This document shows positions 9,726 to 39,130 of a stretch of 42,611 nucleotides of DNA, in pieces. The notes beneath the pieces are model-generated. The model made no database searches, was not told the DNA's origin, and saw only the letters and a list, made by a program, of their open reading frames with translations. Position 1 is the stretch's first letter, and every line of letters starts with the position of its first letter. The DNA is from Candidatus Caenarcanales bacterium (GTDB lineage Bacteria > Cyanobacteriota > Vampirovibrionia > Caenarcaniphilales > Caenarcanaceae). The translations under genes were made by a program, and so were the position numbers. Location of the stretch: contig JANRMG010000065.1 of NCBI GenBank assembly GCA_033761855.1, positions 1 to 42,611 of the forward strand, read 5' to 3'.

Positions 9726-11174
9726 TTGATGTTTGCCAAAATCAATCCGAGTAAAACTTTTAATTCGAATACTCTTTCTGCTTATTCATCGAGCGTCAAT
9801 ATTGGAATATTAAATTCTGGAAATGCTACAGTCGTTTCTTCGATTCTGTCTTCAGCGCTTCCACCGGGGATTTCGGTTTTGGATTTAAATGAGCTAAAAA
9901 AAGCTCCCGATTTCGATAATAAAGCTGCTTCTCTTCAAAAACAGTTGAGTGTAAAAAAGTTTTTAAAAATTCTCTTTGAGCTTGCAATGGCCTTTGCTGG
10001 TTATAAAATCATGCCAACTTTAAAGTCAAAAGTCTCAGACACAAACTTAGTTTCGGGCGTTTCAGGCTTAAAAGAAAAATACATTAATCCTAAATCCCAA
10101 AATCTTAATGAGCAGGCTGAGACTTTCTTTGGATTCAAGATTGATTTAAGCAACCCTTTTGATGTAATAAAACAATTCATTGGTCTTGATTTGAATAATT
10201 CTGTGGTTGGTTTGATTGGTGGCTATGGTTTGGGTGCGCTGCTGGTTAGATTATTTGATAATTTGACAAAAAATATAAATTTACCCTCTTCTGAAACTTC
10301 TTTTCCAGAGAAGAAAGTATTGAAGAAAAGCTTCTTTGATAAGTTTGTTGATTTTTCAATTAAATTAATCTCTTCGCTTACAGTTGCTAATTGGGTACAT
10401 TCAAAAATTAAAAATCCCTTTGTTGAATTTGGGGCTTTAGTTTTGGGTTATGGAATTGGTGAAGGAATAGCTCTTTTCGATGAGTTTTTAAAAAATAAAA
10501 TATACCAAAGTCTTGGCCCGCCGTTAGAAAAGCTTACCGGTACAAAGCTTAAGGAAGAAGATGATCCTAAACAAGAATGGAATTTTGCGGCTTCACTTGC
10601 CAGATCTATTGCTTTGGCGATTTTGGTTTTTATAAAATATATTGTCTTTTTACCAAAGAAAAAATTTCTTTTTTACCAAGCTCAGTATGAGCCTTTAAAG
10701 AAAACAAAGAACGATTTTCTTCTTTCAACCAATAACCATTTAAAGCTACAAGTTGTACCAAGTGCAAATATAAAACCCGCAAAATTTGACCCGGAGGCTA
10801 TTCCCTCGCAGAATATTGAATATACTTATGAATGGCTTGATTCAATCTCTGCAGCTATTAAGCAAGAGAAAAAAGAAAAGCTTTCTCTAGTTAGATTTTT
10901 TTCTAATGCTTACTTAAAACATCTGAAGATGGTTATGAATACAGTACGTTCGCCTAAATTTACTGAAGTGGCTTCCAGAGAGTCTTCTTCAACTAGAGAT
11001 AAGACTGTGGCTTTGATTCAGGATTCAGGCCGAAATATTTTATATAAGTTTCCTTTAAGTTTTTTGATTGTTTTTTACGGAACAGCCGCAGAATTTGTTT
11101 TGCATTTGTTAAACCCTCTTTGGGACTCGCTTAAATCTTTGTTTAAGAAACCTTTTTCCCAGAGTGTTTCTTGA
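9726..11174 (+). CDS. Hypothetical multi-pass membrane protein
   Basis: 482-aa ORF with several hydrophobic segments and a Ser/Thr/Asn-rich N-terminus. No family is recognised. The likely start is the ATG at 9729. Confidence 0.6.
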   Translation: MMFAKINPSKTFNSNTLSAYSSSVNIGILNSGNATVVSSILSSALPPGISVLDLNELKKAPDFDNKAASLQKQLSVKKFLKILFELAMAFAGYKIMPTLKSKVSDTNLVSGVSGLKEKYINPKSQNLNEQAETFFGFKIDLSNPFDVIKQFIGLDLNNSVVGLIGGYGLGALLVRLFDNLTKNINLPSSETSFPEKKVLKKSFFDKFVDFSIKLISSLTVANWVHSKIKNPFVEFGALVLGYGIGEGIALFDEFLKNKIYQSLGPPLEKLTGTKLKEEDDPKQEWNFAASLARSIALAILVFIKYIVFLPKKKFLFYQAQYEPLKKTKNDFLLSTNNHLKLQVVPSANIKPAKFDPEAIPSQNIEYTYEWLDSISAAIKQEKKEKLSLVRFFSNAYLKHLKMVMNTVRSPKFTEVASRESSSTRDKTVALIQDSGRNILYKFPLSFLIVFYGTAAEFVLHLLNPLWDSLKSLFKKPFSQSVS

Positions 11175-12636: not shown

Positions 12637-13704
12637 TTATGTTGTTAAAGATTTACGATTAGGGTTTAAACTCCATTCAACCTCTTTTCTTGTCCACAAG
12701 ACGGCATCCAGGATGTAATGATGAAAAGTAATGGCAAGTGAATACCCTAAAGCTATTGCATTAATTTGCATTGTTCTTATTCCAAGGTTGAGAGCCGGCA
12801 AAACCAAACTAAGTGTAATTAAAATAATAAGGTAGTTTGTCCAATTCTCTTTATTAAAGAGGTTACTCCAAAAAGTATTTTCAATAAATCCTCTGTTGGC
12901 TTTCTCCTCTTGGTGCTTTTTAACGAAGCTAATATACTGCGTACAATGCCAGAACGAAGCCGCAATTATTCCAATGTCTGTTGGTAAGAGGCCAAAGAAG
13001 CAAATAAAAACAAAGCTTTGTGTAAACCAATGTGTGATAAATGCCCATTGAACAATTTTATGTTTATAAAATATTTGTATTTGTCTGCTAATAAAGAAGG
13101 CTGCTACAAGAAAGACACCAATCAAAATTGCAAATACCAATGGAAGAGGCAAGTGCAAAGAGCGAATTGGAATGCCTTCATAATAGTCTCCAGCAACATT
13201 GGATTTTAAGCAAATACCGAGGACAGCTACGCTCCAGAGGGCAATATCGTTAAGTTTGTAATCAAAATTTTCCAGCGTTTGGATTTGCGCCCGCCTCTGA
13301 AATTGTCTTCCTAAACCAAAGCTCTGGCGGGCGTGATGCCACCATTGCCAGTAAAAATAGACGCTTCCTAAGACCCAAATAAAACTGCTTCCAAAGGAGT
13401 AAACAAAGCAACAAAGAACTGCTAAAAGTAAAAGAGGCGTATAAATTGTGTAAAACTTGTTGCGCTCTATTTCAGCCTTTTCTGTATAAGCCTTAAGGTA
13501 ACTAGAGACTAAATGCGGGTTAGCGAAGAATATTCCTTCGAATAAAAGTAAGGATTTGTAATCAATTAATCCATTTTGAAGTAAAGAATAAGCTGGTGCA
13601 AAGAGCAAAACGCCAAAGCCACCCATTTTAAATAAAAAATCTTCTGGGCTTACGGTGTTGCTACTTGCTTTGCTAATAGAGGGTTGGACTAAAGAAATAT
13701 TCAT
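12637..13704 (-). CDS. Polytopic membrane protein with paired-His motifs (unknown family)
   Basis: 355 aa with about 9 hydrophobic segments. Motifs 'WWHHARQSFG', 'FWHCTQY' and 'TFHHYILD' suggest a membrane metal site. Confidence 0.6.
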   Translation of the reverse strand: MNISLVQPSISKASSNTVSPEDFLFKMGGFGVLLFAPAYSLLQNGLIDYKSLLLFEGIFFANPHLVSSYLKAYTEKAEIERNKFYTIYTPLLLLAVLCCFVYSFGSSFIWVLGSVYFYWQWWHHARQSFGLGRQFQRRAQIQTLENFDYKLNDIALWSVAVLGICLKSNVAGDYYEGIPIRSLHLPLPLVFAILIGVFLVAAFFISRQIQIFYKHKIVQWAFITHWFTQSFVFICFFGLLPTDIGIIAASFWHCTQYISFVKKHQEEKANRGFIENTFWSNLFNKENWTNYLIILITLSLVLPALNLGIRTMQINAIALGYSLAITFHHYILDAVLWTRKEVEWSLNPNRKSLTT

Positions 13705-13844: not shown

Positions 13845-14888
13845 ATGATCGTGATCATGGAGCCCAACGCTTCTCAAGAGCAAATAAACAAGGTTGTTGA
13901 GAAAGCTAAAGAACTTGGATTCCAAGCCATTATAAACAAAGGCAAAATACAAACGGTGGTTGCTTTAATTGGTGATGAAACAAAAATTGCTGGCCCGGAT
14001 TTATTTGAAGAGATTACCGGTGTGAGAGCGGTAGAAAGAGTGCAAGTGCCATTTCGTTTAGCAAGTAGAACTACCCAATATGCTGATTCAGCTATTGAAG
14101 TCGCTCCTGGAGTGATTATAGGTGGCAATGAAGATTTAATTGTAATGGCTGGTCCTTGTTCGGTAGAGACTGAAGAAGGGATTATGCAAACTGCCAAAGC
14201 TGCTAAAGCGGCTGGCGCCAAAATTTTAAGAGGCGGAGCTTATAAACCTAGAACTGCTCCCAGGACTTTTGAAGGTCTTGGTGAATTGGGTCTTAAGCTT
14301 TTAAAACAAGCTAAACAAGAAACAGGGCTTCCAATCGTAACCGAGATCATGGATATCCGTGATTTGGACGTTGTTTGCGAAAACGCCGATATTTTGCAGG
14401 TTGGTGCGAGAAATATGCAAAATTTCTCTATGCTTAACGATTTAGGTAAGGTGGATAAGCCAATCTTATTAAAACGTGGAATGTCTTCTACTATTGATGA
14501 ATGGCTTTTAGCGGCAGAACGAATTATGCACCATGGCAACAGTAAAGTTATTCTCTGCGAGCGTGGAATCAGAACTTTCGATTCTAAATATACTCGTAAC
14601 TGCCTTGACGTATCGGCTGTACCAGCGGTTAAAAAATTAAGTCATCTTCCAATTATTGTTGATCCCTCTCACGGTACCGGTAAAAAAGCCTTAGTTGCTT
14701 CTATGGCTATGGCTGGTATCGCTGCCGGAGCTGATGGATTGATGATTGAAATTCACCCAGACCCTGAGAATGCTCTTTCGGATGGGCCACAAAGTTTAAC
14801 CTTTGAGCAGTTTGCTCCTTTAATGGATGATTTGAGAGAGCTTAGAGCTTTTATGTTTAAGTTGAATAAGGCTAAAGCCTTAGCTTAA
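13845..14888 (+). CDS. aroF: 3-deoxy-7-phosphoheptulonate (DAHP) synthase, type I-beta with an N-terminal regulatory extension
   Basis: 'KPRTAPRTFEGLG' and 'IIVDPSHGTG' motifs in a 347-aa ORF, preceded by the SD CAGGAGA. Confidence 0.9.
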   Translation: MIVIMEPNASQEQINKVVEKAKELGFQAIINKGKIQTVVALIGDETKIAGPDLFEEITGVRAVERVQVPFRLASRTTQYADSAIEVAPGVIIGGNEDLIVMAGPCSVETEEGIMQTAKAAKAAGAKILRGGAYKPRTAPRTFEGLGELGLKLLKQAKQETGLPIVTEIMDIRDLDVVCENADILQVGARNMQNFSMLNDLGKVDKPILLKRGMSSTIDEWLLAAERIMHHGNSKVILCERGIRTFDSKYTRNCLDVSAVPAVKKLSHLPIIVDPSHGTGKKALVASMAMAGIAAGADGLMIEIHPDPENALSDGPQSLTFEQFAPLMDDLRELRAFMFKLNKAKALA

Positions 14889-14889
14889 A

Positions 14890-15558
14890 TTGTTAAATCA
14901 TTCAATTAGTCAGCAAATTGGAAACTTTACGCTTAATATTTCTACTTTTTTGTATTTGGTTTATTTGCTGCCACAACTCTTTCATAATCGCCTAGTTGAG
15001 CATATAAAAAAGCTAAGCCTTTTAACTCATTCAATTCTTTTTTCAGCTTATATTCTTGATTTGGTTTATGCTTTCGGCCGTTCTATGCCTTGGCAGTACA
15101 AGTTAGTTAGCTGTATTGGTTTAGTTTGCCTATTAGTTCAGCACTTTCAGTTCTTGCATTTCTCGTCTGCTTTGCCCACAATTGATCGGAAAGTTCTTAA
15201 AGCTTTAACTTTTCTTTTTCTAATTGGGTTAGCTGTCGGAATTTATTTAGTTTGTTCAAATCAACTGTCAAAATCCACTTTAGTATTGTTAGGCTCCATT
15301 TCGCAGATTGGATGGTTAACTTACGTTTTTCCTCAAATATATAAAAATTATGTTCTTAAGTCTGGAGAAGGTCTGAGTCTTTATTTTATTTTGTTTATTT
15401 TGCTAATTACTCTTTGCGACACTCTTTCGGCCTGGTTTTTAGATTGGGATTTGCCAAATAAAATTGGTTCTCCGCTTTCATTCGGTGTTAAATTGATTTT
15501 GTTGTTGCAATTTTTCAAATATTCAAGTAAGTCTTCAGAGCAAAAATTAAGTTACTAG
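14890..15558 (+). CDS. PQ-loop repeat membrane protein (7-TM)
   Basis: Two PQ motifs at the start of hydrophobic repeats ('LLPQLFHN' and 'VFPQIYKNY'). TTG start 2 nt after the aroF stop. Confidence 0.55.
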   Translation: MLNHSISQQIGNFTLNISTFLYLVYLLPQLFHNRLVEHIKKLSLLTHSILFSAYILDLVYAFGRSMPWQYKLVSCIGLVCLLVQHFQFLHFSSALPTIDRKVLKALTFLFLIGLAVGIYLVCSNQLSKSTLVLLGSISQIGWLTYVFPQIYKNYVLKSGEGLSLYFILFILLITLCDTLSAWFLDWDLPNKIGSPLSFGVKLILLLQFFKYSSKSSEQKLSY

Positions 15559-15577
15559 TTTGCTGTAAATGACATTT

Positions 15578-16321
15578 TTATCTGACTGGAATATTGATAT
15601 TTATCGCATTGCTCCATTTAGGACTTATTATATTGAATGTTTTAGCCAGTCCATGTCTTTCAAAAGTGTTGGTAAAAAACTCGTCTTGAATTCTTAAGAA
15701 ATAGTATCCTCTTGACTCCTCTGTTACTTCTATTCCATGAGCTCTGCTAATTCTATTGCTCTTAAAGTAATTACTAAGTAAAGTGTAAGTACTTCTATCT
15801 ATCTGGAATAAAGTTTCAGCGCCACCTTTCCAAGTGTAATCATCATTAATTTTATATTTTACATTTACTGCCTTTCCATTCTCAACTGTGATTTGAGCTT
15901 GAACAAGGGCTGAACCAAAAGCTGAATAATAATCAGATTCAGCAGGAAAATTTGATATGAATGCTACTGGTTGGAATTCGCTAGTATAAGTACCATTTCT
16001 ACCGTTTGCTTTAGCTTTATTAAGGGCTGACATTAAAGCGGGGTTGTGAGGTGTAGCTATTGAGTATCCTCCATCTCTTTTGTGGACAGCTTCCATTATT
16101 CTTGTAATTTCTTCTTGTGTAAGAGAAATCTCTTTAACACTACTTTGAAAATAATTTCTGAGAAATCTAGCAGACATTGGTCTTACCACACCTGCTATAT
16201 TATTTATTCCTAATATATGACTCTTTAACACTATGGCTTGTTCCTTACTAATTGTTCCGTTGTTTGAGGCTTGAATTTGAGGAACTGAAGAAATAATGTT
16301 TCCGCTGGCTGGTATCATCAT
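15578..16321 (-). CDS. Hypothetical soluble protein, second gene of the TPP-riboswitch unit
   Basis: 247-aa ORF, 74 nt downstream of the preceding gene with no obvious terminator between them. No family is recognised. Confidence 0.65.
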   Translation of the reverse strand: MMIPASGNIISSVPQIQASNNGTISKEQAIVLKSHILGINNIAGVVRPMSARFLRNYFQSSVKEISLTQEEITRIMEAVHKRDGGYSIATPHNPALMSALNKAKANGRNGTYTSEFQPVAFISNFPAESDYYSAFGSALVQAQITVENGKAVNVKYKINDDYTWKGGAETLFQIDRSTYTLLSNYFKSNRISRAHGIEVTEESRGYYFLRIQDEFFTNTFERHGLAKTFNIISPKWSNAININIPVR

Positions 16322-16395
16322 TTGAAACTTTAAGAATTTAGTATTTTATAGACCAAGTTAACCCTAAATTTTTTAAGATTAAATTGTCTTGTTTT

Positions 16396-17172
16396 TTAAA
16401 TTCCAGTAACCATACTATTCAGCGAAGTTAATTCTTGATTAAGTTTTTGGGTATTAAACCCGATTTTCGATAAACCCTCTTTGTTCTGTAGCATTTGTTT
16501 ACCAATAAATTGCTCCATTATTGGTTTGATGCTCGATTTAAGAAGATCATTAGTTATAAGTCCAAGTATAAGCCCAATGAGTCCGCCCAGATAACCGCAC
16601 AAGTTGTTAGATTCTTCTCTTCCACTTATTTCTAGTTCTCCATTTTTAATAGCTTTAACTACTTGGTTTTGTCCAATTGTCTGTCCAAGCTTGTCAAAAG
16701 CTAAAACCGGCAGAGTATATGTTAAAAAGCCAAGAATGAGCAAAGCAATGTCATTCCGAAGGCCGGTGAATACATCAACCTGATTACTTTGTTTTCCTTG
16801 ATTATAAAAATTGAAAAACTTGTCAGACCAGCTTTTCCTTGGTTTGTTTTCCAGAGCTCTTTGAGTTAGTTCATGGGTTTTTCGGTAGTTCCAAACTCTT
16901 ATAGCATGGGAAATTGGTATGGAAATAATGTTGCCGAATAAAAATATTAAAACGCTCATCTGAATTAAATCTACATGGTTTTTGAGCCATTTAAAACTTC
17001 TCCAGAAAAAATTTGATTGGTCTTCTGAAAGCTGAGTTTGAGACTTTGGAAAGTTAAAAACCTGATTTATATTATTGAGAGGTGTACTTCGTGATGTTTG
17101 TGAGCTTGATTTTAAGCTCTTCTGGAAATGATGAAATTGTTTTTTTTTATGTTCTAAAAAATTAATTTGCAC
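16396..17172 (-). CDS. Hypothetical membrane protein (about 3 TM), first gene behind the TPP riboswitch
   Basis: 258-aa ORF with a GTG start a few nt after the purine-rich 3' end (GGAGGGAGAGG) of the aptamer. Hydrophobic segments are 'MSVLIFLFGNIISIPI', 'IALLILGFLTYTLPVLAF' and 'LGGLIGLILGLI'. Confidence 0.65.
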   Translation of the reverse strand: MQINFLEHKKKQFHHFQKSLKSSSQTSRSTPLNNINQVFNFPKSQTQLSEDQSNFFWRSFKWLKNHVDLIQMSVLIFLFGNIISIPISHAIRVWNYRKTHELTQRALENKPRKSWSDKFFNFYNQGKQSNQVDVFTGLRNDIALLILGFLTYTLPVLAFDKLGQTIGQNQVVKAIKNGELEISGREESNNLCGYLGGLIGLILGLITNDLLKSSIKPIMEQFIGKQMLQNKEGLSKIGFNTQKLNQELTSLNSMVTGI

Positions 17173-17174
17173 TT

Positions 17175-17265
17175 GCCTCTCCCTCCGCTGGAATTACCCA
17201 GATCAGGTTCTGTGGGTTGTCGGGATTGTGACTCTCAGCCTCTTAAAACGAAGCACCCCATTGAA
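17175..17265 (-). promoter_or_regulatory. TPP (THI-box) riboswitch
   Basis: The minus-strand RNA reads GGGGUGCUUCGUUUUAAGAGGCUGAGAGUCACAAUCCCGACAACCCACAGAACCUGAUCUGGGUAAUUCCAGCGGAGGGA. This contains the conserved GGGGUGC, CUGAGA, ACCC and ACCUGAUCUGG-UAAU-CCAGCG-AGGGA blocks. Confidence 0.9.
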
Positions 17266-17579
17266 TGTGATTAAACAAAATTATAATTGTTAATATTTGT
17301 TCGGGAGCTTAAATATATATTAAATAATTTTAACTATTAGCTTAAAACTTTGACTTTAGAGCTTTACAAAATGTAAGATCTCTAATTCGATTGATTGTGT
17401 TAACCAAAAATTATATTTAACCAACTCACAAAGTTGGATATCCATTATAAATATACAAATGAGTGGATGGTTTGATTCGAAGGGTTCAGTACAAAACAAA
17501 ACGGATTGAGAAATCTTTTATGCGCTTTTCATAAGTCTTGCAATGGTCCCGTCAACATTTTTTAGGAGAGCTTTTTTAA

Positions 17580-18554
17580 ATGGTCAAAATTATAGATGAC
17601 GCATCACTACTGATTGAAGAACAACTTGATTCACTTTTTTTGGAAGATGAATTAAAAAAAGAAGAGGAAAAAATAGCCGAAGAAGGCTTGAATGATGAAG
17701 TTGAAGCCATCGAAGAATCTCCCTTAACCGAGGATTCGGTAAAGCTTTATTTGCGTGAAATTGGTCGTGTAGCTCTTTTGGATGCGCAGCAAGAAATCGA
17801 GCTTGCGAGAAGAATCAAAGATGGTGAAGAACAAGCCAAAAGACTTCTTGTCCGTCATAATTTAAGGCTTGTAGTAAGTATTGCTAAAAAATATATTAAT
17901 CGTGGCTTGCCTTTTCTAGACCTTATTCAAGAAGGAAATTTGGGTCTCATTCGTGCTGCCGAAAAATTTGACCATACTCGTGGGTTCAAGTTTTCAACAT
18001 ATGCAACTTGGTGGATCCGTCAGGGTATTACTCGTGCGCTTTCTGACAAATCTAGAACCGTAAGGATTCCCGTTCACATGGTTGAGACCATCCAGCGTGT
18101 AAAAAACGTTGCTCGTCAGGCTGCTATGGAACTTGGTAGACGTCCAACCGTTCAGGAACTTGCTGCTATTCTTCAAATCAGCACCGATAAACTGAGTGAA
18201 GTAATGGCTGCTATGAGAACCCCCGTCTCACTTCATTCTCCAATTGGTAGTGAAGACGAAGGAACACTCGAAGAGTTTATTTCAGACACTCTTCGTGCAA
18301 GCCCAGACCAAGAGGCAACTGACAGACTCTTAAGAAAAGATCTTCTTAATTTCTTGGATCAAACTTTAACTCCTAAAGAGAAAGCAGTTGTGGTTTTACG
18401 CTACGGTCTTGATGAGACAGGAGAACCGCGCACGCTTGAGGAAGTTGGAGAAATTCTTGATATCACGCGGGAGCGTGTTAGACAGCTTGAAGCAAGAGCT
18501 TTGAAGAAACTACGTGAAACAAGACATCCTGAAATGTACGATTATTTGAATTAA
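17580..18554 (+). CDS. RNA polymerase sigma-70 family factor (RpoD/RpoS-like, group 1/2)
   Basis: Region 2 '[18 protein letters not shown]...[16 protein letters not shown]' and region 4.2 '[28 protein letters not shown]', with an acidic N-terminus. 324 aa. Confidence 0.9.
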
Positions 18555-18697: not shown

Positions 18698-20071
18698 ATG
18701 TCAGTAGAGAACCAGTTAGCAGATTTATCTGAGTCACAATTAAAAAATCTTTTTAATCAAAAAGGCAAACTTAATATTCTTGATAATTATCGTGGCCAGA
18801 AGCGCGAAAATAAGCCTGTGTTCATAGAAGCAATTAAGTTTTTTTTAGTTTTACTCTTTTGGATTGGAGCTTCTTTTGGTGGTGCATTGGCAGCTACTTT
18901 TGCAGCTGTTATTTTAACTCCAATGTTACTAAAGCCTTTTGGCTTGCCTGAAGAAATAATAAAGTTTGCTGCGGCAACCGCTCCGTTGGCTGCCGTTATG
19001 ACTTTTATCCCGATTAATGCCATGTTACTTGTTTTATTTGAGCGTAAATTCTTGGCTTTGCTGACCACGAGGCTTGGCCCGAACAGAGTGGGTCCCAACG
19101 GTCTTTTACAAACCTTTGCTGATGCGCTTAAACTTTTATTTAAAGAAGACATTGTTCCCGCTAAAGCGGATAAAGTTTTGTTTTTCTTAGCTCCGGCTCT
19201 TTTCTTTACACCTAGCGTTATTGCCTTTTTGCCTCTCATGTCGGTAGCTGGTGGTGGCATTGGCCCTTTTGCAAGAACAGAGTTTCCTTCCAGCCTTTTA
19301 TTTGTAATTGCAGTTTCTTCTCTGGCTGTAATGGGTCTTATAATGGCTGGCTGGGCGAGTAACAATAAGTACTCTCTGATCGGAGGCTTAAGAAGTACAG
19401 CTCAAGCTATTAGTTATGAAATTCCTTTTGTTTTAGGAATTGTCAGTTTTATTGTTTTGGTTGGAAGCTTAAACCTAAAAGAAATTGGAACAAGACAATC
19501 CAACGGCATCTTAGATTGGAACATTTTTGCGGCTGGTACTTTTTTAAATCCACAAAACTTCACTCCTTTAGGAATTGGACTAAGTATATTACTGGCTGTT
19601 TTAATGCCTGTTTTGGCTTTTTTAATTTACTTTTGCACTTTGGCTGAAGTTAACCGTATTCCTTTCGACCTTCCAGAAGCAGAATCTGAGCTAGTCAGTG
19701 GTTTTAATACTGAATTTACCGGTATGAAATTTGCTTTATTCTTTTTGGCAGAGTACACCAATTTGTTTATTGTGAGCACATTGTTGGCAATTATTTTCTT
19801 TGGTAGCACTTATTCTGGAATTCCAACCTTCGATACATTTTTAGCAAATTCACTAAAACTAACTCCAATTGGAGATTTAAGTTGGTTTCCTGGCGCAACA
19901 ATTTTACTTATTAAATCTTATTTATTTATTGGACTTGCTATTTGGATTCGCGCTACTCTTCCTCGCTTCCGCTCGGATCAGCTAATGGGTTTGGCTTGGA
20001 AAGTTCTTATTCCAATCTCTTTAGTTTTAGTAGTTTTGTCTGCAATTTGTAGAACTTTTTTGATTATTTAG
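18698..20071 (+). CDS. nuoH: NADH-quinone oxidoreductase subunit H with an N-terminal extension of about 85 aa
   Basis: 'GPNRVGPNGLLQTFADALKL', 'AGWASNNKYSLIGGLRSTAQAISYEI' and 'PFDLPEAESELVSGFNTEFTGMKFALFFLAEY'. 457 aa against about 330-370 typical. Confidence 0.9.
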   Translation: MSVENQLADLSESQLKNLFNQKGKLNILDNYRGQKRENKPVFIEAIKFFLVLLFWIGASFGGALAATFAAVILTPMLLKPFGLPEEIIKFAAATAPLAAVMTFIPINAMLLVLFERKFLALLTTRLGPNRVGPNGLLQTFADALKLLFKEDIVPAKADKVLFFLAPALFFTPSVIAFLPLMSVAGGGIGPFARTEFPSSLLFVIAVSSLAVMGLIMAGWASNNKYSLIGGLRSTAQAISYEIPFVLGIVSFIVLVGSLNLKEIGTRQSNGILDWNIFAAGTFLNPQNFTPLGIGLSILLAVLMPVLAFLIYFCTLAEVNRIPFDLPEAESELVSGFNTEFTGMKFALFFLAEYTNLFIVSTLLAIIFFGSTYSGIPTFDTFLANSLKLTPIGDLSWFPGATILLIKSYLFIGLAIWIRATLPRFRSDQLMGLAWKVLIPISLVLVVLSAICRTFLII

Positions 20072-20124
20072 ATACTATTAGAGCCATGTTAATTATTTGG
20101 TAATTATTTAGGAACTAATTAAAA

Positions 20125-20835
20125 TTGAGTATAAAAATTTGTCATTTGTACCCAAAACATATGTCTCTCTATGGTGATAGAGGCAATATTGTTGTCTTGT
20201 CTTTTTTAGCAGAACAAATTGGAATTGATTTAAGCTTGCAGGATTGCTATCCCGGAGAGCGAATTGAACCACACTCAAATATTATTTTTTTGGGCGGTGG
20301 GCAAGATAATGACCAAGAGAAAATAGTCAATGATATTTTGCAAAGAAAAAACGAAATTGCTGATTTAATCGCTAATGGCTGTATTTTTATTGGTGTTTGT
20401 GGCGGTTACCAACTTTTGGGTACAAGTTATGAATCAGCTTCTGGTCACACTCTCAAAGGTTTAGATATTTTAGATTTTTACACGCTCAATTCTAAAAAAG
20501 GTGAGAAGAGAATAATTGGAAATGTTGTTGCTTTCAGCGAGCAATTTGGCAGTTTAGTAGGCTTTGAAAACCATGGCGGAAGGACTTTCTTAAAAGGACA
20601 AACTCCATTAGCTAAAGTTATTCAAGGTGGAGGAAACAATGCAAACGATACAACTGAAGGGCTTTTCCAGCAATATGGAAATGGGCATATTTTAGGAACA
20701 TACCTGCATGGTTTCTTGCAAAAAAATCCTAATGTCGCAAAATGGCTCATTAAATCAACTTGTGGCTACGATTACTTTTTGCCTGATCCGATTGAAACGC
20801 TAAATTTAAAAACAAACATGAGCCTTTCTTACTGA
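20125..20835 (+). CDS. gatD: GatD-type glutamine amidotransferase (lipid II isoglutaminyl synthase subunit / CobQ-like GATase)
   Basis: 'HLYPKHMSLYGDRGN', 'GGGQDNDQ', nucleophile 'VCGGYQLLG', 'FENHGGRT' and 'GTYLHG'. TTG start. Confidence 0.8.
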   Translation: MSIKICHLYPKHMSLYGDRGNIVVLSFLAEQIGIDLSLQDCYPGERIEPHSNIIFLGGGQDNDQEKIVNDILQRKNEIADLIANGCIFIGVCGGYQLLGTSYESASGHTLKGLDILDFYTLNSKKGEKRIIGNVVAFSEQFGSLVGFENHGGRTFLKGQTPLAKVIQGGGNNANDTTEGLFQQYGNGHILGTYLHGFLQKNPNVAKWLIKSTCGYDYFLPDPIETLNLKTNMSLSY

Positions 20836-20897
20836 GTTTTGATATTATTTTTTTATTCATTTACTTTTTTGATAATCAGTTTCATTAGGGGATTTCA

Positions 20898-21407
20898 ATG
20901 GTTTTAGACAAGGTATTTAAAGGCGCAGGCCACATTGCTGAAGGGATGGGCACGGTCTTAAAACAATCAACCAGAGACCCGGTTAGTACTTCTTATCCTG
21001 ATGAATTACCAACTCTTTATCCAAACTCTCGTCACAGGTTAGCTTTAAATGTTAATCCAATTACCGGAGAACATTTATGCATTGCTTGTAAGCAGTGTGA
21101 GAGAGTTTGCCCAGACCAATGTATAACTGTAATTCCAGATCCAACAGCTAAAGGCAAGGTTCAAGAGTTTTATATTGACCAAGGACTTTGTATGTTCTGC
21201 GGTTTGTGCACAGAAGTTTGCCCGACAGACTGTATCATAAACACCAACGATTTTGAAATGAGCGATTATTCGCGCGAAGCATTAGTTTATGACATTAAAA
21301 AATTAACTCTTAGTCGCGACCAATCAGAATTTTATTTTGACTATAAAGGTTTAGATTTACCTAAACCTAAGAAAGCTACGGCAGTATCAGTGGAAGAAAA
21401 AGGTTAG
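20898..21407 (+). CDS. nuoI: NADH-quinone oxidoreductase subunit I (2x[4Fe-4S])
   Basis: Two ferredoxin motifs, 'CIACKQCERVCP' and 'CMFCGLCTEVCP'. 169 aa. Confidence 0.9.
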   Translation: MVLDKVFKGAGHIAEGMGTVLKQSTRDPVSTSYPDELPTLYPNSRHRLALNVNPITGEHLCIACKQCERVCPDQCITVIPDPTAKGKVQEFYIDQGLCMFCGLCTEVCPTDCIINTNDFEMSDYSREALVYDIKKLTLSRDQSEFYFDYKGLDLPKPKKATAVSVEEKG

Positions 21408-23273: not shown

Positions 23274-23369
23274 ATGGATTTAGCATTATTTTTTTTAGTC
23301 GTAGCAGTATTTGTTCTAGCATTATTTGCTGGAAAAATTATTGATTTTCTTTTTAAGAAGCGTTATTAA
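23274..23369 (+). CDS. Candidate 31-aa hydrophobic peptide (MDLALFFLVVAVFVLALFAGKIIDFLFKKRY)
   Basis: Not in the supplied ORF track because it is under 60 aa. It has one TM helix and a basic tail, and its 3' end overlaps the convergent recombinase gene by 17 nt. The SD is weak. Confidence 0.3.
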   Translation: MDLALFFLVVAVFVLALFAGKIIDFLFKKRY

Positions 23370-24090
23370 ATGATTTTTCAGGCAGAGTTTTTACTCTTTC
23401 CATAATTCTTTTTACTGTCATAGGCTTAAATTCCTTTCCAGTTCTGGTTCTAATTCCATCGTGGTTTAGTTCTTCCGAAATTCGTTTATAGGTTTTTCCT
23501 TCGGTTTTCATTCTTGAAAGCCTTTTTTCTAAAGACGAATAATATTGTTTTGCTTCTTCTATTTTGTATTGAGCCTGCTTCCATCTATGTTCCTTAAGGC
23601 TTTTCTCGTTGCCGAGTTTTTCGCCACGCGCTTTTTTGGACTGTAAAGCCTCAATAGTCCGTTTTGATATTAATCTTGCCTCTTCTTCATAAACTGCTGC
23701 TTTAATTTGTAGGATGAACGGAGAATCGCTTGGTGCATCAGCACAAATAAAATTGATTCCAGCTTGCATTAAAAAGCTAATTAATAACTGGTTTCTTCCA
23801 AGCCTGGATAAATCTTTAATTACTAATGTCACCTTTTCTTTTTGGCAGTATTCAATTAGCTCTTTTAAAATTGGCCTTTTTTTTAGAAGAGAATCAAGGT
23901 TTAGACTTTGCTTAATGCTAATTCTTGTTTTATTTGTTCCAGTTTCTATTTCTATGGCTTCTTTGATTAGTTCACCATTTACGTTTTTAATATAGTTGCT
24001 ATTAATTCTCTGTTGTGCTTCTATTCCTAGCTTGGAATCACCTTGCTTGTCTGTTGATACGCGAATGTAGGAGGCATATTTATTACTCAT
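23353..24090 (-). CDS. Small serine recombinase (resolvase/invertase family)
   Basis: 'YIRVSTDKQ' catalytic-Ser motif at the N-terminus and a C-terminal DNA-binding-like 'LNHDGIRTRTGKEF'. 245 aa, flanked by very AT-rich spacers. Confidence 0.88.
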   Translation of the reverse strand: MSNKYASYIRVSTDKQGDSKLGIEAQQRINSNYIKNVNGELIKEAIEIETGTNKTRISIKQSLNLDSLLKKRPILKELIEYCQKEKVTLVIKDLSRLGRNQLLISFLMQAGINFICADAPSDSPFILQIKAAVYEEEARLISKRTIEALQSKKARGEKLGNEKSLKEHRWKQAQYKIEEAKQYYSSLEKRLSRMKTEGKTYKRISEELNHDGIRTRTGKEFKPMTVKRIMERVKTLPEKSFNNAS

Positions 24091-31502: not shown

Positions 31503-34500
31503 TCAAGGAGAAGATTTAGATAGAGGCTTTTCTTCGGCAGGAAGTACTTCTAGAGTGTTTTCGGTAGAACCATTCCTTGAGGGGATTTTTGCTTTTGGCA
31601 GATTTGAATGTAAACCGCTATCAAGCCATTTAAAGCTTGAGGAAGAAGTACTGTTTAGTTGCTGTTGATTATTGTAATTACCATTCATATTAAAGGAAAA
31701 AACACGAGGTCTGGTTTCTATAATTTTGTCTATTATTGGAAGATGTCCAAGAATATTTGCAAAATTTAATTGTGAAAAAATATTAGAAAACTCCGAGCCA
31801 GGATTGACCCGAACAGGGATTCGAGGAATACTACCGATAAAATTGAAATTAATTTTTGAATTTTTTCTCTCGAAATGACCGCTGGTATTGAGGTTTAATT
31901 TGTTGGTTCCTCTGTAACTGGCTTCAGGAATAAGAATCCAATCTTTGTCCACTTCCCAACGACCATATAGAGCCCTGTAATAGCCATTAGTAGTTGGAGA
32001 GAGGAATTCCAAAAGGGAATTAATATTTAGTGCTAAAGGACCATTAAAAACAAGATTAGCGAGGTTTAACTTTTTCTGTAAATCAAGAACTGCTGAAGTA
32101 TTTCCGTTTTTTAGATTAAATGAACCAGCCCCGAAGACTGGTTTTTCTCCCTTAATTAAGCTCCCAAGGTGACCATCCACTTTAAAGGTAAAATCTCCAG
32201 TCCCGCTTAAGCCTCTCTGACCGGATAAACCTCTTGCAATCGTTCCTACATTTAAATTATTGGCATCACCGACAAAGTGACCCTCCCAGTTTGCTAATTC
32301 AATATTACCGTTTAAATTAACATCTCCACCGGCTGTTTTAAAGGCCAAACCGGGCATTTGTAAATAGTTGTCTTTAAGATTAAAAGCCACATTCAACTCA
32401 TTAAAAGGAAGGTTTTTTATAATTCCTTTGTCAACAACCAAAGTAGAGTATCCCTTTCCACCTTTTGATTCAAAATAGCCTTCCAGAGAGGTTAGTTCCA
32501 AGGGTCCAATTTCTATACTTTGCAGTTCATCGGTTCTGAGAGATAACTTTAGGTTATTCCAAAAAGATTTTTTATCAAAAGCATTTATATTATTGCTTTC
32601 AACCCAACCTATGAGAGCTCCTCTTAAATTTGGGGTTTGAGAATTAACAGAATTATTGGCAGTATCAAAAAGCTGGCCTAAGTCAATTACGGGGTCTGTG
32701 TAGAGTTTAAGGTTAAAGTTCTCGGGTTTTCCTTCGGCTTCAGCAGCAATGTTTAATCCATTTAATGCACATTCAAAATCTTCTAGTTTAAAGTAACCAT
32801 CAGATGGTCGAACTAATATATCAGCATTAAAAAATCCTTCTGTACTTAACTTATCGGCTGGAAACAAATTTGAATTTAGGGAGCCCAAATTTTTAAATAT
32901 AGAGCTAACCTTTGATTCGAACATTCCCCCCTCTATTGGCTTTATTTCAGCGTTTATTGGAAGCAAAGCTTCCGAATTCAAAGCAAAATTTAATTTTTGT
33001 TGGGTCTTTTTATCTATAAAGTCATTAAGGTCAATTAGTCCTTGTAAATTCCCGTCAAAACTGGCAACCGAATCCAAAAAGCTATTAATTGAGGCTGTTG
33101 TCAGGAATTCCTTAGAAGGCTCCAGTTTGCCATTGAGAAATAAACTGGACTTGTTACCGTAAAGGAGTGATAGATTACCGACCTCAAGTACTCCATAACC
33201 TGGAAAGCTTAGTTTTCCAGAACCATTAGTGATTTTTTGGTTTTTATAAAGGAGACCCACATTTTGTAAATTGAGTTTTAGCTTATGAAGCTTAGAATCA
33301 AGGATTTCAAAATCGCTACTCAAGTAACCTGTTGGGTTTTGTATATTCTGGAGGAACTCTCTTTTTATATCCTTGTTTAATAAAGGCAAGATTTCAAGTA
33401 AGGTCGACAATTTAGTTTGAGATTCAACTCTTACTTTTAAAGGCTCTAAAGGTTGTTTTTCAGGAAGTTTAAAATTTCCATTCAAAAGTAAAAATTCATC
33501 ATCAGCCAATTTTGCTTTTAAGTTATAAACATCGAGTTGGGTATTACTTCCATATTTTATTTTTCCGGTAACAAATTCAACTTTCTTTTGTCCAATTTGA
33601 GGAGACAAAGCACTAAGTCTTGAAGGCTCAAACTCAAGATTCAGTGTGGGGTTTTGTGGGTCCTCGAAACTAATTTTGCCAAAAAGATTTTTGACTAAAC
33701 CATTAAAAGTTAAATTGTTTTTTTCAAGCGTAAAATTTTGGAAAGCAATTTGTGGAGAAGTAAAATCCAGATTTATCTTTGGTTTTTTTAAATCGTTAAA
33801 AAGAGCTTTAACACTGAATGAGACACGGTTTAGAGGATTATCTAATAAACTAAAAATTGCTAGACCCTGAAGCTCTTTGTCTTTTAAAACAAACTTTCCG
33901 CTACCATCAGAAAGAGAAATCTTTCTTAAACTGTCTTTGAGATTAGCCTTTGAAAGAGTAAATTCACCTTTAGCTTTTTTCTTCTCAATCGTTAGCTTTC
34001 CATTAAGTTCTCCACTCACAAACTCTAGGTCTTGCTTCCCTAAAAGTGCATTAAAATCTTTGAGTTGAATATTGCTTATTTCAAGTTTTGCATCGGTAAT
34101 ATTTTTGTCAGCAAAAGTTAAAAAGCCATTAATAGATCCTAAATTGCTGTTGTTCGGAGCTAGGTAAAAATTGAGCGGTTTAAAAAATAATTTAAACCTC
34201 GATTTTTTAAGTTCAGAAAGATTAATGAGTGATTCACCACTAATCTGCCCAGCCAGAGAGGATAATTTATATTTTGCAAGTTCATCTTTTAGGTAAGGAG
34301 TGAAAAAGCTTGCCCTTACTGGTTCTAGGATTAGCCTGACTTTTCGCGGAAAGCCAAAAAGGCTATATGGCCTTAAAACCTTTGAATGGAGATTAATATT
34401 TTGGGATTTTAAATTAAAAGTTTTTACTTCTCTAAGCTTGTCTAGTGCTGAATTTGTAACCAGAGAAAGAGCTAATTTAAAATCTTCGGTAGGTACACCG

Positions 34501-35177
34501 TTTAGACTAACTTCAGAAAAAGAAAAATCTTCTGTACTAACAAAAAAAGGTTTTCGTTTAAAAGCATTATTTGTAAAAAGAATATTGCCATTAAGCACTG
34601 ATGAAAAGCGACTTTCTTGAATTATATAGTTTTGAAGTTTTAGTGTTAAATAACTACTATCGCCGGTAAAGCCAGACAAAGAAATTGTATTGGTTTTTAC
34701 CTCAGTCTCCCATCTTTGCCCTAAGGGACTAGAACGTTGCATTTGAATAATTTCGATTACAGGAATATTTTTAGCTACTTTGCTTAAGTCGCCATTCCGA
34801 AATTCCATTCTATTGATTAGAAGAGGTATTTGGGGAAAGTCTTTACGATCAGTAATCTTTTTAGGGAACGACTTTAGTTTCCAGTTTTCAACCAGAGTAT
34901 AACCATTTGGAATTGAATAATTAAATCGCTCAATTAATAAAAGCCCATCATCGGTTTCACATAAACTTGCACAGAGCTTTAAGTTTCCGCACCATTTTAC
35001 ATCTTTGCATTTAAGGCGGCTTCCAACTATTGTGTGGATTTTAAGATTTAATACTGACCAAATAAATTTGGGGTTTTGTATTTTCTCACGAAAGTGAAAT
35101 CCAAGATAAACAGGCAGAATTAAACCACAAAGTAAAACAACTACAAAAAAACCTCCGATGAATTTCTTGTAATTCAA
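31503..35177 (-). CDS. Giant N-terminally anchored beta-rich envelope protein, AsmA/TamB-like
   Basis: 1224 aa with a single N-terminal TM ('FIGGFFVVVLLCGLILPVYL') and long Asn/Lys/Leu/Ser-rich beta-strand-like periodicity throughout. The family call is by architecture only. Confidence 0.5.
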   Translation of the reverse strand: MNYKKFIGGFFVVVLLCGLILPVYLGFHFREKIQNPKFIWSVLNLKIHTIVGSRLKCKDVKWCGNLKLCASLCETDDGLLLIERFNYSIPNGYTLVENWKLKSFPKKITDRKDFPQIPLLINRMEFRNGDLSKVAKNIPVIEIIQMQRSSPLGQRWETEVKTNTISLSGFTGDSSYLTLKLQNYIIQESRFSSVLNGNILFTNNAFKRKPFFVSTEDFSFSEVSLNGVPTEDFKLALSLVTNSALDKLREVKTFNLKSQNINLHSKVLRPYSLFGFPRKVRLILEPVRASFFTPYLKDELAKYKLSSLAGQISGESLINLSELKKSRFKLFFKPLNFYLAPNNSNLGSINGFLTFADKNITDAKLEISNIQLKDFNALLGKQDLEFVSGELNGKLTIEKKKAKGEFTLSKANLKDSLRKISLSDGSGKFVLKDKELQGLAIFSLLDNPLNRVSFSVKALFNDLKKPKINLDFTSPQIAFQNFTLEKNNLTFNGLVKNLFGKISFEDPQNPTLNLEFEPSRLSALSPQIGQKKVEFVTGKIKYGSNTQLDVYNLKAKLADDEFLLLNGNFKLPEKQPLEPLKVRVESQTKLSTLLEILPLLNKDIKREFLQNIQNPTGYLSSDFEILDSKLHKLKLNLQNVGLLYKNQKITNGSGKLSFPGYGVLEVGNLSLLYGNKSSLFLNGKLEPSKEFLTTASINSFLDSVASFDGNLQGLIDLNDFIDKKTQQKLNFALNSEALLPINAEIKPIEGGMFESKVSSIFKNLGSLNSNLFPADKLSTEGFFNADILVRPSDGYFKLEDFECALNGLNIAAEAEGKPENFNLKLYTDPVIDLGQLFDTANNSVNSQTPNLRGALIGWVESNNINAFDKKSFWNNLKLSLRTDELQSIEIGPLELTSLEGYFESKGGKGYSTLVVDKGIIKNLPFNELNVAFNLKDNYLQMPGLAFKTAGGDVNLNGNIELANWEGHFVGDANNLNVGTIARGLSGQRGLSGTGDFTFKVDGHLGSLIKGEKPVFGAGSFNLKNGNTSAVLDLQKKLNLANLVFNGPLALNINSLLEFLSPTTNGYYRALYGRWEVDKDWILIPEASYRGTNKLNLNTSGHFERKNSKINFNFIGSIPRIPVRVNPGSEFSNIFSQLNFANILGHLPIIDKIIETRPRVFSFNMNGNYNNQQQLNSTSSSSFKWLDSGLHSNLPKAKIPSRNGSTENTLEVLPAEEKPLSKSSP

Positions 35178-37792: not shown

Positions 37793-39130
37793 ATGGACTC
37801 TTATTTCAAAGAACTCATTCAATCGGTTAAAACAAAAGCAGACCGAATTATTAAGGGTGAGAAATTAACCCGCTGGATAGGCTCAGTAAGTAAAATTGTG
37901 GGTTTAATGATTGAATGCAGGATTCCAGGGGCAACCATTGGTGAGCTCTGCGAAATTGTAACCGACAGCGGAGAAAAGCGTCTAGCAGAAGTTGTTGGCT
38001 TTAAAGATGAAACTTCTATCCTCTTGCTCTTGGGAGCTGGTGGTGGATTGCATCAGGGAAGCAAAGTTTATCCAACCGGTAAAACCCTTCAAATTCCTCT
38101 TGGGAACTCGATTTTGGGCCGTATTATTGATTCGCTCGGGCGACCTTTGGATGGAAAACCCCTGGGTGGCATTAAGGATTGGAGGGGAATAGACGCTGAT
38201 CCGCCAGAAGCCTACGGAAGACCAAGGATCGATGAAGTATTTTCGACCGGTGTAAGAGCGATAGACAGTCTTTTAACACTTGGGGTTGGGCAGCGTGTTG
38301 GTTTGTTTGCTGGCTCTGGAGTGGGGAAATCAACCCTTATGGGTATGATAGCCCGTTACAGTGATGCTGAAGTGAACGTAATTGCCCTTGTAGGTGAGCG
38401 TGGAAGAGAAGTCCAAGATTTTATTGAAGAAAGTTTGGGTCCCGAAGGCATTAAAAAGTCGGTTGTTATAATCGCAACTTCTGACCAACCGGCTATGTTC
38501 CGCTTAAAATGCCTTTATACAGCTACAACTATTGCCGAATACTTTCGCGATAAAGGGAAGAAAGTCCTTTTGATGGTAGATTCCGTAACCCGTATGGCAA
38601 TGGCAGGTCGTGAGGTTGGTCTTTCGGTGGGTGAACCGCCCACTATGAAAGGTTACACACCTTCTGTTTTTGCTATGCTCCCTCGTGTTTTGGAGAGGGC
38701 AGGTCGTTCCAAAAAAGGCTCAATTACAGCGATTTACAGCACTTTGGTGGACGGTGATGATTTTAACGAGCCAATAGCTGACGCAGTCAGAGGAATTCTT
38801 GATGGACACATTCTCCTTTCGCGGGATATTGCGGCCAAAAATCATTTTCCAGCCATCAATATTCTCGGATCAGTTAGTCGTTTATTTACTGAGCTCGCTG
38901 ATAAAGAGCATCAGGCGGCGGCGGGGGATATTCGGAATATAATGGCCAGTTACCAAAAGTCTGAGGACTTGATTACAATCGGTGCTTACAATAAGGGCAC
39001 AGACAAAAACCTTGATAGAGCGATTAATTTGCAAGACCCCATAAATAATTTCTTAAAACAAGGAATGCACGAACCAATGGAGTTTTCTCAAACCATCAAG
39101 CGTTTGAAAGAGATCTCGGCGATTAGGTAA
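37793..39130 (+). CDS. fliI: FliI/SctN-family type III export ATPase
   Basis: Walker A 'AGSGVGKST', Walker B 'VLLMVDSVTR', 'GSITAIYSTLVDGDD' and 'FPAINILGSVSR'. 445 aa. Confidence 0.9.
   Translation: MDSYFKELIQSVKTKADRIIKGEKLTRWIGSVSKIVGLMIECRIPGATIGELCEIVTDSGEKRLAEVVGFKDETSILLLLGAGGGLHQGSKVYPTGKTLQIPLGNSILGRIIDSLGRPLDGKPLGGIKDWRGIDADPPEAYGRPRIDEVFSTGVRAIDSLLTLGVGQRVGLFAGSGVGKSTLMGMIARYSDAEVNVIALVGERGREVQDFIEESLGPEGIKKSVVIIATSDQPAMFRLKCLYTATTIAEYFRDKGKKVLLMVDSVTRMAMAGREVGLSVGEPPTMKGYTPSVFAMLPRVLERAGRSKKGSITAIYSTLVDGDDFNEPIADAVRGILDGHILLSRDIAAKNHFPAINILGSVSRLFTELADKEHQAAAGDIRNIMASYQKSEDLITIGAYNKGTDKNLDRAINLQDPINNFLKQGMHEPMEFSQTIKRLKEISAIR

Follow-up and report, generated by a model that had tools for sequence, protein, structure and literature searches.

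Which gene or genes does a thiamine pyrophosphate (TPP) riboswitch control when neither protein encoded behind it belongs to a described thiamine family? The question is raised by a 42,611-nt contig (JANRMG010000065.1 of GenBank assembly GCA_033761855.1; at its full length referred to here as the window) from a member of the Candidatus Caenarcaniphilales, an order within the non-photosynthetic Melainabacteria lineage. An earlier note, made from the letters of this DNA alone, had described a TPP aptamer on the minus strand and suggested that it governs two adjacent genes, here ORF1 and ORF2 (ORF, open reading frame), as a new thiamine-related module. Here, we report that the aptamer is, by sequence and model score, a genuine TPP riboswitch, and that its link to ORF1 recurs in a second lineage. 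In our preferred reading, to which we give slightly less than an even chance, ORF1 encodes a small integral membrane protein that is under the control of a functional TPP riboswitch and most likely serves the uptake of thiamine or of a thiamine precursor. ORF2 appears to lie outside the conserved riboswitch unit, and the data do not support the two-gene module.

A TPP riboswitch directly upstream of ORF1

The whole 42.6-kb window was scanned with cmscan against the covariance models of Rfam 15. Two matches exceeded the gathering score: one is a tRNA-Met, and the other is a TPP riboswitch at full length, spanning the entire model from position 1 to 105. In a permissive scan of positions 15300 to 17650 at E ≤ 1, this model (RF00059) was the sole match. 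The elements concerned are the following.

17163–17270, minus strand: TPP riboswitch aptamer (RF00059), full length; 60.2 bits vs. a gathering score of 54.3, E = 1.7e-9
17176–17186, minus strand: purine tract GGAGGGAGAGG, comprising the 3′ strands of helices P4 and P1 and the intervening junction
17170–17172, minus strand: GTG start codon of ORF1, 3 nt beyond the purine tract
16396–17172, minus strand: ORF1 (SFU25_02345, MDX1919556.1), orphan integral membrane protein of 258 aa with two to three predicted transmembrane (TM) segments; real gene as judged by dN/dS (the ratio of nonsynonymous to synonymous substitution rates)
15578–16321, minus strand: ORF2 (SFU25_02340, MDX1919555.1), soluble ORFan of 247 aa; very probably a gene as judged by codon usage and ORF-length shuffles
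17280–17285, minus strand: TATAAT hexamer, possible −10 element 10 nt upstream of the aptamer; weak, found by eye

Both the conserved THI-box blocks by which the earlier note had recognized the aptamer and the RF00059 search that it had proposed are borne out by this significant match. In the alignment, the CUGAGA block of the pyrimidine-sensor arm is visible, as are the ACCUGAUCUGGGUAAUUCCAGCG block and GAGGGA, and the blocks of the pyrophosphate-sensor arm (ACCUGAUC..GG.UAAU.CC..GCG.AGGGA) were all found. Helices P2, P3, P4, and P5 are canonical, except that P2 and P4 each have a mismatch in a terminal pair, and all four are also seen in the unconstrained minimum free energy fold. In the Rfam register, the variable P3a is poorly paired, and the closing helix P1 is weak, with three of its five pairs being noncanonical. 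At the TATAAT hexamer, a full sigma-70 site was not called by the promoter scan.

The sequence directly before the GTG of ORF1 (17172–17170) is GGAGGGAGAGGCAA. As the earlier note had pointed out, the purine tract at the 3′ end of the aptamer lies immediately before this codon; it is the sole Shine-Dalgarno-like sequence for ORF1 and, thus, doubles as its ribosome-binding site. In-frame stops are found 7 and 10 codons before the GTG in the window. No terminator-like hairpin was found after the aptamer on the minus strand, as would be expected if control is exerted on translation and not via a terminator. A separate expression platform seems to be absent, with the Shine-Dalgarno sequence lying within the 3′ strands of the aptamer itself. 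In the mechanism that we propose, the ligand-locked aptamer fold would hide the ribosome-binding site when TPP is abundant, leaving ORF1 untranslated, while the weak P1 would open when TPP is scarce, and ORF1 would be made. We infer that TPP represses ORF1 translation via the occluded Shine-Dalgarno sequence embedded in the aptamer.

Conservation of the riboswitch–ORF1 link in a second population

Searches of 5.8 billion clustered proteins were made both with the single ORF1 sequence and with a profile of two sequences. The sole relative is P0002, a protein of 287 aa with 68% identity over 219 residues. Together with a one-residue variant (P0005), it sits on six short Logan contigs (L001, L002, and L053–L056) from six Sequence Read Archive runs; because these contigs differ by only 0 to 2 nt, they represent one population. 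All six begin inside a TPP aptamer, and the purine tract is identical in all of them. The 3′ half of the aptamer, which is cut by the contig end, scores 36.7 bits in L001, where 35 of 36 nt are identical to the window, and 35.6 bits in L002; in both, it lies directly before the ORF1 homolog. In L001, an ATG is present exactly at the position of the GTG in the window. In both lineages, frame 0 is open over the first 54 codons, while the other frames contain three to seven stops. The second lineage supports the start assignment of ORF1 because the frame is open from GTG or ATG in both and because the ATG lies at the matching position. Since the 3′ half of the aptamer and the start codon recur before the sole relative of ORF1, the link between riboswitch and ORF1 is, at the level of sequence, conserved in a second lineage.

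The contigs of the second population start 24 to 38 nt upstream of the ATG, in the aptamer core (positions 1 to 38). Because they begin inside this core, they lack the aptamer's 5′ half. The shared start looks like branching of the assembly graph at a k-mer common to several TPP riboswitches in the samples.

Cargo and design of related riboswitches

As a control set, we used 50 metagenomic loci (L003–L052) with the same 31-nt 3′ core of the aptamer. Their G+C content of 0.45 to 0.74 is in all cases above that of the window, and no relatives of ORF1 or ORF2 were found in them. With the cargo defined as the first sizeable downstream ORF, the set yielded 42 distinct proteins, which were annotated with Pfam as follows.

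ThiB-like solute-binding proteins: 16
CytX-type permeases: 9
thiamine pyrophosphokinases: 4
ABC ATPases: 3
ThiD: 2
ThiE: 1
TenA: 1
YkoF-type thiamine-binding protein: 1
fatty-acid desaturase: 1
without Pfam hit: about 4

About 37 of the 42 cargos (∼90%) belong to known thiamine families; therefore, ORF1 stands out as a cargo. The Pfam library readily identifies thiamine families in the control loci, unlike for ORF1 and ORF2.

The design of the window riboswitch is common in the control set. In at least 12 of the 50 loci, the start codon lies 0 to 7 nt past GGGAGNGG, i.e., these riboswitches are likewise platform-less. The five that were checked (L013, L017, L020, L034, and L036) precede genes for a CytX-type permease, a thiamine pyrophosphokinase, ThiB-like binding proteins, and ThiD; they score 57 to 70 bits, and in the Rfam register two to four of the five P1 pairs are mismatched in four of them and one of five in the fifth. 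Because these controls in front of thi genes have a comparably weak P1, the weak P1 of the window aptamer appears to be normal for the platform-less subtype rather than a sign of decay.

ORF1 is an orphan membrane protein under purifying selection

ORF1 has been deposited as a hypothetical protein (SFU25_02345) of a Candidatus Caenarcaniphilales metagenome-assembled genome. The earlier note had described a 258-aa protein with about three TM segments. The length stands, and so do two TM-like peaks at residues 69–91 (Kyte–Doolittle [KD] hydropathy of 2.08) and 141–159 (KD of 1.95); the third segment, a Gly-rich stretch at residues 191–211, falls below the scan cut-off of 1.6, with a hand sum of ∼1.46. 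This third segment contains a GxxxGxxxG motif (glycine zipper), and lysine plus arginine residues are nearly balanced across the membrane (14 vs. 16). Together with the small number of TM segments, these two features hint at a protein that probably works as an oligomer.

Comparison with the L001 relative gave a dN/dS of 0.12 over 221 codons, with synonymous sites near saturation (proportion of synonymous differences, pS, 0.70). This purifying selection argues that ORF1 is a real gene. Identity between ORF1 and P0002 is highest in TM2 (95%), followed by the loop before TM2 (86%) and TM3 (86%), and is 28% in the first 54 residues.

Neither a Pfam family at E ≤ 1 nor anything beyond noise at E ∼0.1 in NCBIfam was found for ORF1, and nothing matched in PHROGs or PADLOC. 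The ORF1 profile found no locus in genome, metagenome, and viral contigs, and tblastn searches of plasmids with ORF1 and ORF2 gave nothing. The only profile match in the PDB, the membrane anchor of influenza neuraminidase, was rejected as chance hydrophobic similarity. On this basis, ORF1 appears to be an orphan membrane protein confined to the Caenarcaniphilales populations found.

ORF2 appears to lie outside the conserved unit

ORF2 is likewise deposited as a hypothetical protein (SFU25_02340) of a Candidatus Caenarcaniphilales metagenome-assembled genome. It is encoded on the same strand as ORF1, from which it is separated by a 74-nt gap; in line with the earlier note, this gap contains no minus-strand terminator-like hairpin, nor does it contain a called promoter. 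Only the frame of ORF2 itself has a coding-like codon usage (+0.21 bits per codon), which is similar to that of the host, and an ORF of this length arises in none of 2,000 shuffles. Judged by these data, ORF2 is very probably a gene.

The 247-aa product was correctly described as soluble: it has no TM segment, signal peptide, lipobox, or hydrophobic N-terminus (maximum KD 1.19). Because it lacks a TM segment and a signal peptide, ORF2 cannot be an extracytoplasmic binding protein. No Pfam family, including those of solute-binding proteins, matched at E ≤ 1, and NCBIfam gave only noise at E ∼0.1; accordingly, the view that neither protein belongs to a described thiamine family holds for ThiT, PnuT, CytX, ThiW, ThiBPQ, ThiXYZ, YkoCDEF, TenA, ThiC-S, and thiamine pyrophosphokinase. 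No homologs beyond ORF2 itself were found in the 5.8 billion proteins, in viral contigs, or by a sequence search of the PDB. In an exhaustive HMMER search, which covered 1.84 billion representatives, a single further match emerged; this protein, P0004, is a TPR/CHAT repeat protein that aligns via a repeated TWxGEAEVLF motif, and it was discarded as spurious. Structure prediction, which the earlier note had proposed for both proteins, gave unusable models; for ORF2, the AlphaFold2 model has a predicted local distance difference test score (pLDDT) of 44.8, and its best Foldseek match in the PDB (E = 0.086) is meaningless.

ORF2 and any remnant of it are absent from L001 and L053 of the second population. 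Around ORF2 in the window, no target-site duplications, terminal inverted repeats, or GC anomaly were found as insertion scars. The earlier note had also asked whether homologs of the two proteins follow TPP riboswitches elsewhere. The relative of ORF1 does lie behind a TPP aptamer, while for ORF2 there is no homolog to consider. Altogether, these findings suggest that ORF2 is a lineage-specific orphan gene that chances to lie 3′ of ORF1. It may be cotranscribed with ORF1 and would then be affected only indirectly.

Genomic context

The G+C content is 0.37 for the window and 0.34 for each of ORF1 and ORF2, with no compositional anomaly. As the earlier note had stated, no other thi gene is present in the window, judged by Pfam on the 29 further ORFs of ≥100 aa. 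The Pfam-annotated housekeeping genes include those for GltX, TerC, 3-deoxy-D-arabino-heptulosonate 7-phosphate (DAHP) synthase, a sigma-70 factor, NuoH, FabI, GlgE, FliI, and AspRS. The sigma factor gene (17580–18554, plus strand) and the riboswitch unit are divergent. On the other side of the unit lies a gene that is listed for context only.

14890–15558, plus strand: gene for a 7-TM PQ-loop protein, which in both lineages converges on the riboswitch unit

The PQ-loop gene begins 1 nt past the stop codon of the DAHP synthase gene, and the pair occupies 13845–15558 (plus strand). The dN/dS of the PQ-loop gene, 0.16, is comparable with that of ORF1. In the second population, 9 nt separate the end of the ORF1 homolog from the stop of the PQ-loop gene, with which it is convergent. 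No terminator-like hairpin was found on either strand between the PQ-loop gene and the riboswitch unit in either lineage, and because the stop codons are 9 nt apart in L001, the convergent transcripts probably overlap there. A search of genome contigs with the PQ-loop profile as a route to synteny gave nothing.

The pairing of the DAHP synthase and PQ-loop genes is also kept in the second population (L001, 912–2222, minus strand). A G[FW]LTYxxP motif is common to TM2 of ORF1 (residues 147–155, ∼16708–16734, minus strand) and the second PQ motif of the PQ-loop protein (residues 140–149, ∼15307–15336, plus strand). Kinship of the two proteins on the basis of this motif was considered and rejected, the hhalign probability being 1.9% and the motif probably shared by chance.

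Several further features of the window are recorded here. In the NuoH region (18698–21407, plus strand), NuoH has an N-terminal extension of ∼95 aa before the NADHdh domain, and a gene for a CobB/CobQ-type glutamine amidotransferase (20125–20835) lies between nuoH and a NuoI-like 2x[4Fe-4S] gene (20898–21407). A 245-aa serine recombinase with a Resolvase and a partial Recombinase domain (23353–24090, minus strand) looks truncated; it adjoins a type II dehydroquinase gene and may be a mobile-element remnant. Sizeable ORFs without a Pfam match are found at 31503–35177 (minus strand, 1,224 aa) and 9726–11174 (plus strand, 482 aa), and a 355-aa multi-TM protein without a Pfam match is encoded at 12637–13704 (minus strand). 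A gene for a FliI/type III secretion system-type ATPase is present at 37793–39130 (plus strand). Flagellar gene sets have been reported for Caenarcaniphilales (PMC4040986), and the FliI of the window agrees with this.

Discussion

What, then, might ORF1 do? According to a published survey, the genes in TPP regulons either serve thiamin biosynthesis or encode transporters for thiamin or its precursors (PMC3766115). Because ORF1 is a membrane protein that would be induced at TPP scarcity, its association with the riboswitch suggests a role in the uptake of thiamine or a precursor, i.e., hydroxymethylpyrimidine (HMP) or thiazole; we regard this role as plausible, if somewhat short of an even chance. 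More tentatively still, ORF1 could be the founding member of a new, Caenarcaniphilales-confined family of small oligomeric, possibly dual-topology, importers of thiamine or its precursors that are induced at low TPP by a platform-less TPP riboswitch.

Several observations weigh against the uptake of thiamine by a riboswitch-controlled ORF1. On the side of the RNA, no register of P1 yields net stabilization in nearest-neighbor folding, P4 folds without ligand, and the ON and OFF states are not separated by this method. The comparison of P1 for covariation is limited, since the aptamer of the second population is represented by its 3′ half alone. On the side of the protein, two to three TM segments with hydrophilic loops of 30 to 50 aa are atypical for a transporter, ORF1 has neither a domain nor a homolog of assigned function, and its AlphaFold2 model is unusable (pLDDT 36.9). 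The exhaustive HMMER search covered ORF2 only, so that ORF1 may have remote homologs. Finally, ORF1 is known from two populations only, and its linkage to the riboswitch could partly reflect shared descent.

It is conceivable, yet rather unlikely, that the riboswitch controls ORF1 as a membrane protein that is needed under TPP limitation and is not itself a transporter, e.g., a protein that regulates or pairs with a different transporter (the PQ-loop neighbor, for instance), or a membrane-anchored salvage or sensing factor. The small number of TM segments and the long, highly conserved hydrophilic loops of ORF1 would suit such a protein, its gene lies tail-to-tail with the 7-TM PQ-loop gene in both lineages, and the fatty-acid desaturase behind one of the control riboswitches demonstrates that the rule of thiamine-related cargo has exceptions. 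However, canonical thiamine genes make up ∼90% of the control cargos. A partnership with the PQ-loop protein in particular has to contend with a gene that lies on the opposite strand, is coupled to DAHP synthase, and is outside the control of the riboswitch; moreover, the profile comparison yielded the very low probability given above, and, the two lineages being fairly close, descent alone would lead one to expect synteny.

The module envisaged in the earlier note, in which ORF1 and ORF2 are under joint control by TPP as a transporter plus a binding protein or salvage enzyme, we consider improbable. The shared strand, the short gap without a terminator-like hairpin or called promoter, and the host-like coding character of ORF2 speak for it, and untranslated ORF1 mRNA could lower expression of ORF2 via polarity. 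Nevertheless, ORF2 does not occur in the one further lineage that carries ORF1, has no homolog in either protein collection apart from the spurious match, and lacks the signal peptide or lipobox of an extracytoplasmic binding protein. In addition, no Shine-Dalgarno sequence precedes it, and translational coupling would require a shorter gap. Even less probable, in our estimate, is that the aptamer is an inactive relic, or that ORF1 is incidental and the riboswitch in truth acts through antisense or convergent transcription that enters the PQ-loop/DAHP synthase operon. The weak P1 would fit decay, and the convergent genes, which have no intrinsic terminator between them in either lineage and whose stop codons are 9 nt apart in L001, would fit an antisense output. 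But the 3′ half of the aptamer has been kept almost unchanged where synonymous sites are saturated, the placement of the start codon is conserved, ORF1 is under purifying selection, and functional-looking riboswitches of the same design have an equally weak P1; furthermore, a design that looks translational would not by itself alter antisense transcription. We therefore retain control of ORF1 by the riboswitch, with uptake as its most likely purpose, as the preferred reading.

While the riboswitch class and the common platform-less configuration are known, a conserved and previously undescribed cargo is, as far as the searches reach, new. If the preferred reading is true, non-photosynthetic relatives of the Cyanobacteria use the TPP riboswitch for a target other than thiC. 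The impact is limited by the occurrence of ORF1 in two populations only and by the regulator being the sole tie of ORF1 to thiamine. A literature search on thiamine metabolism in Caenarcaniphilales or Melainabacteria found nothing usable. In the surveyed Cyanobacteria, thiC is the sole target of the TPP riboswitch, and transporters are not under its control (PMC3766115). The riboswitch described here is of the same aptamer class and comes from a lineage related at the phylum level; it differs in that it precedes a gene for a non-thiC orphan membrane protein in a Melainabacteria-type genome.

In design, the closest counterparts are the five platform-less control riboswitches, which resemble the window riboswitch in the start codon 0 to 7 nt after GGGAGNGG and in a P1 that is weak in the Rfam register; they differ in cargo, which is an orphan here and a CytX-type permease, a thiamine pyrophosphokinase, ThiB, or ThiD there. 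The TPP riboswitch of E. coli thiM also acts translationally, with a separate anti-Shine-Dalgarno helix downstream of the aptamer. In the case of ORF1, by contrast, the Shine-Dalgarno sequence lies in the 3′ strands of the aptamer, and the likeness would consist in ligand-dependent occlusion of the ribosome-binding site. With regard to the protein, Fluc/CrcB, which responds to fluoride, and SMR/Gdx, which responds to guanidine, are small oligomeric membrane proteins under riboswitch control. ORF1 is similarly small, has few TM segments, and is encoded directly behind a riboswitch; however, it shares no sequence kinship with them, belongs with another ligand class, and has large loops, and its oligomerization is suggested by sequence features only.

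The linkage on which our proposal rests has precedents. As far as can be told from the survey, which cites Rodionov et al. 2002 for it, thiT/yuaJ, pnuT, cytX, thiW, thiBPQ, thiXYZ, and ykoEDC were first predicted via linkage to THI elements (PMC3766115). ORF1 differs from these systems in matching none of their Pfam or NCBIfam models, in having no more than two to three TM segments, which are joined by long hydrophilic loops, and in its presence in two populations only. Like them, it is a membrane protein encoded directly behind a THI element, and it is, thus, a concrete and cheaply testable transporter candidate of the kind that ThiT, PnuT, CytX, and ThiW were when THI linkage first predicted them.

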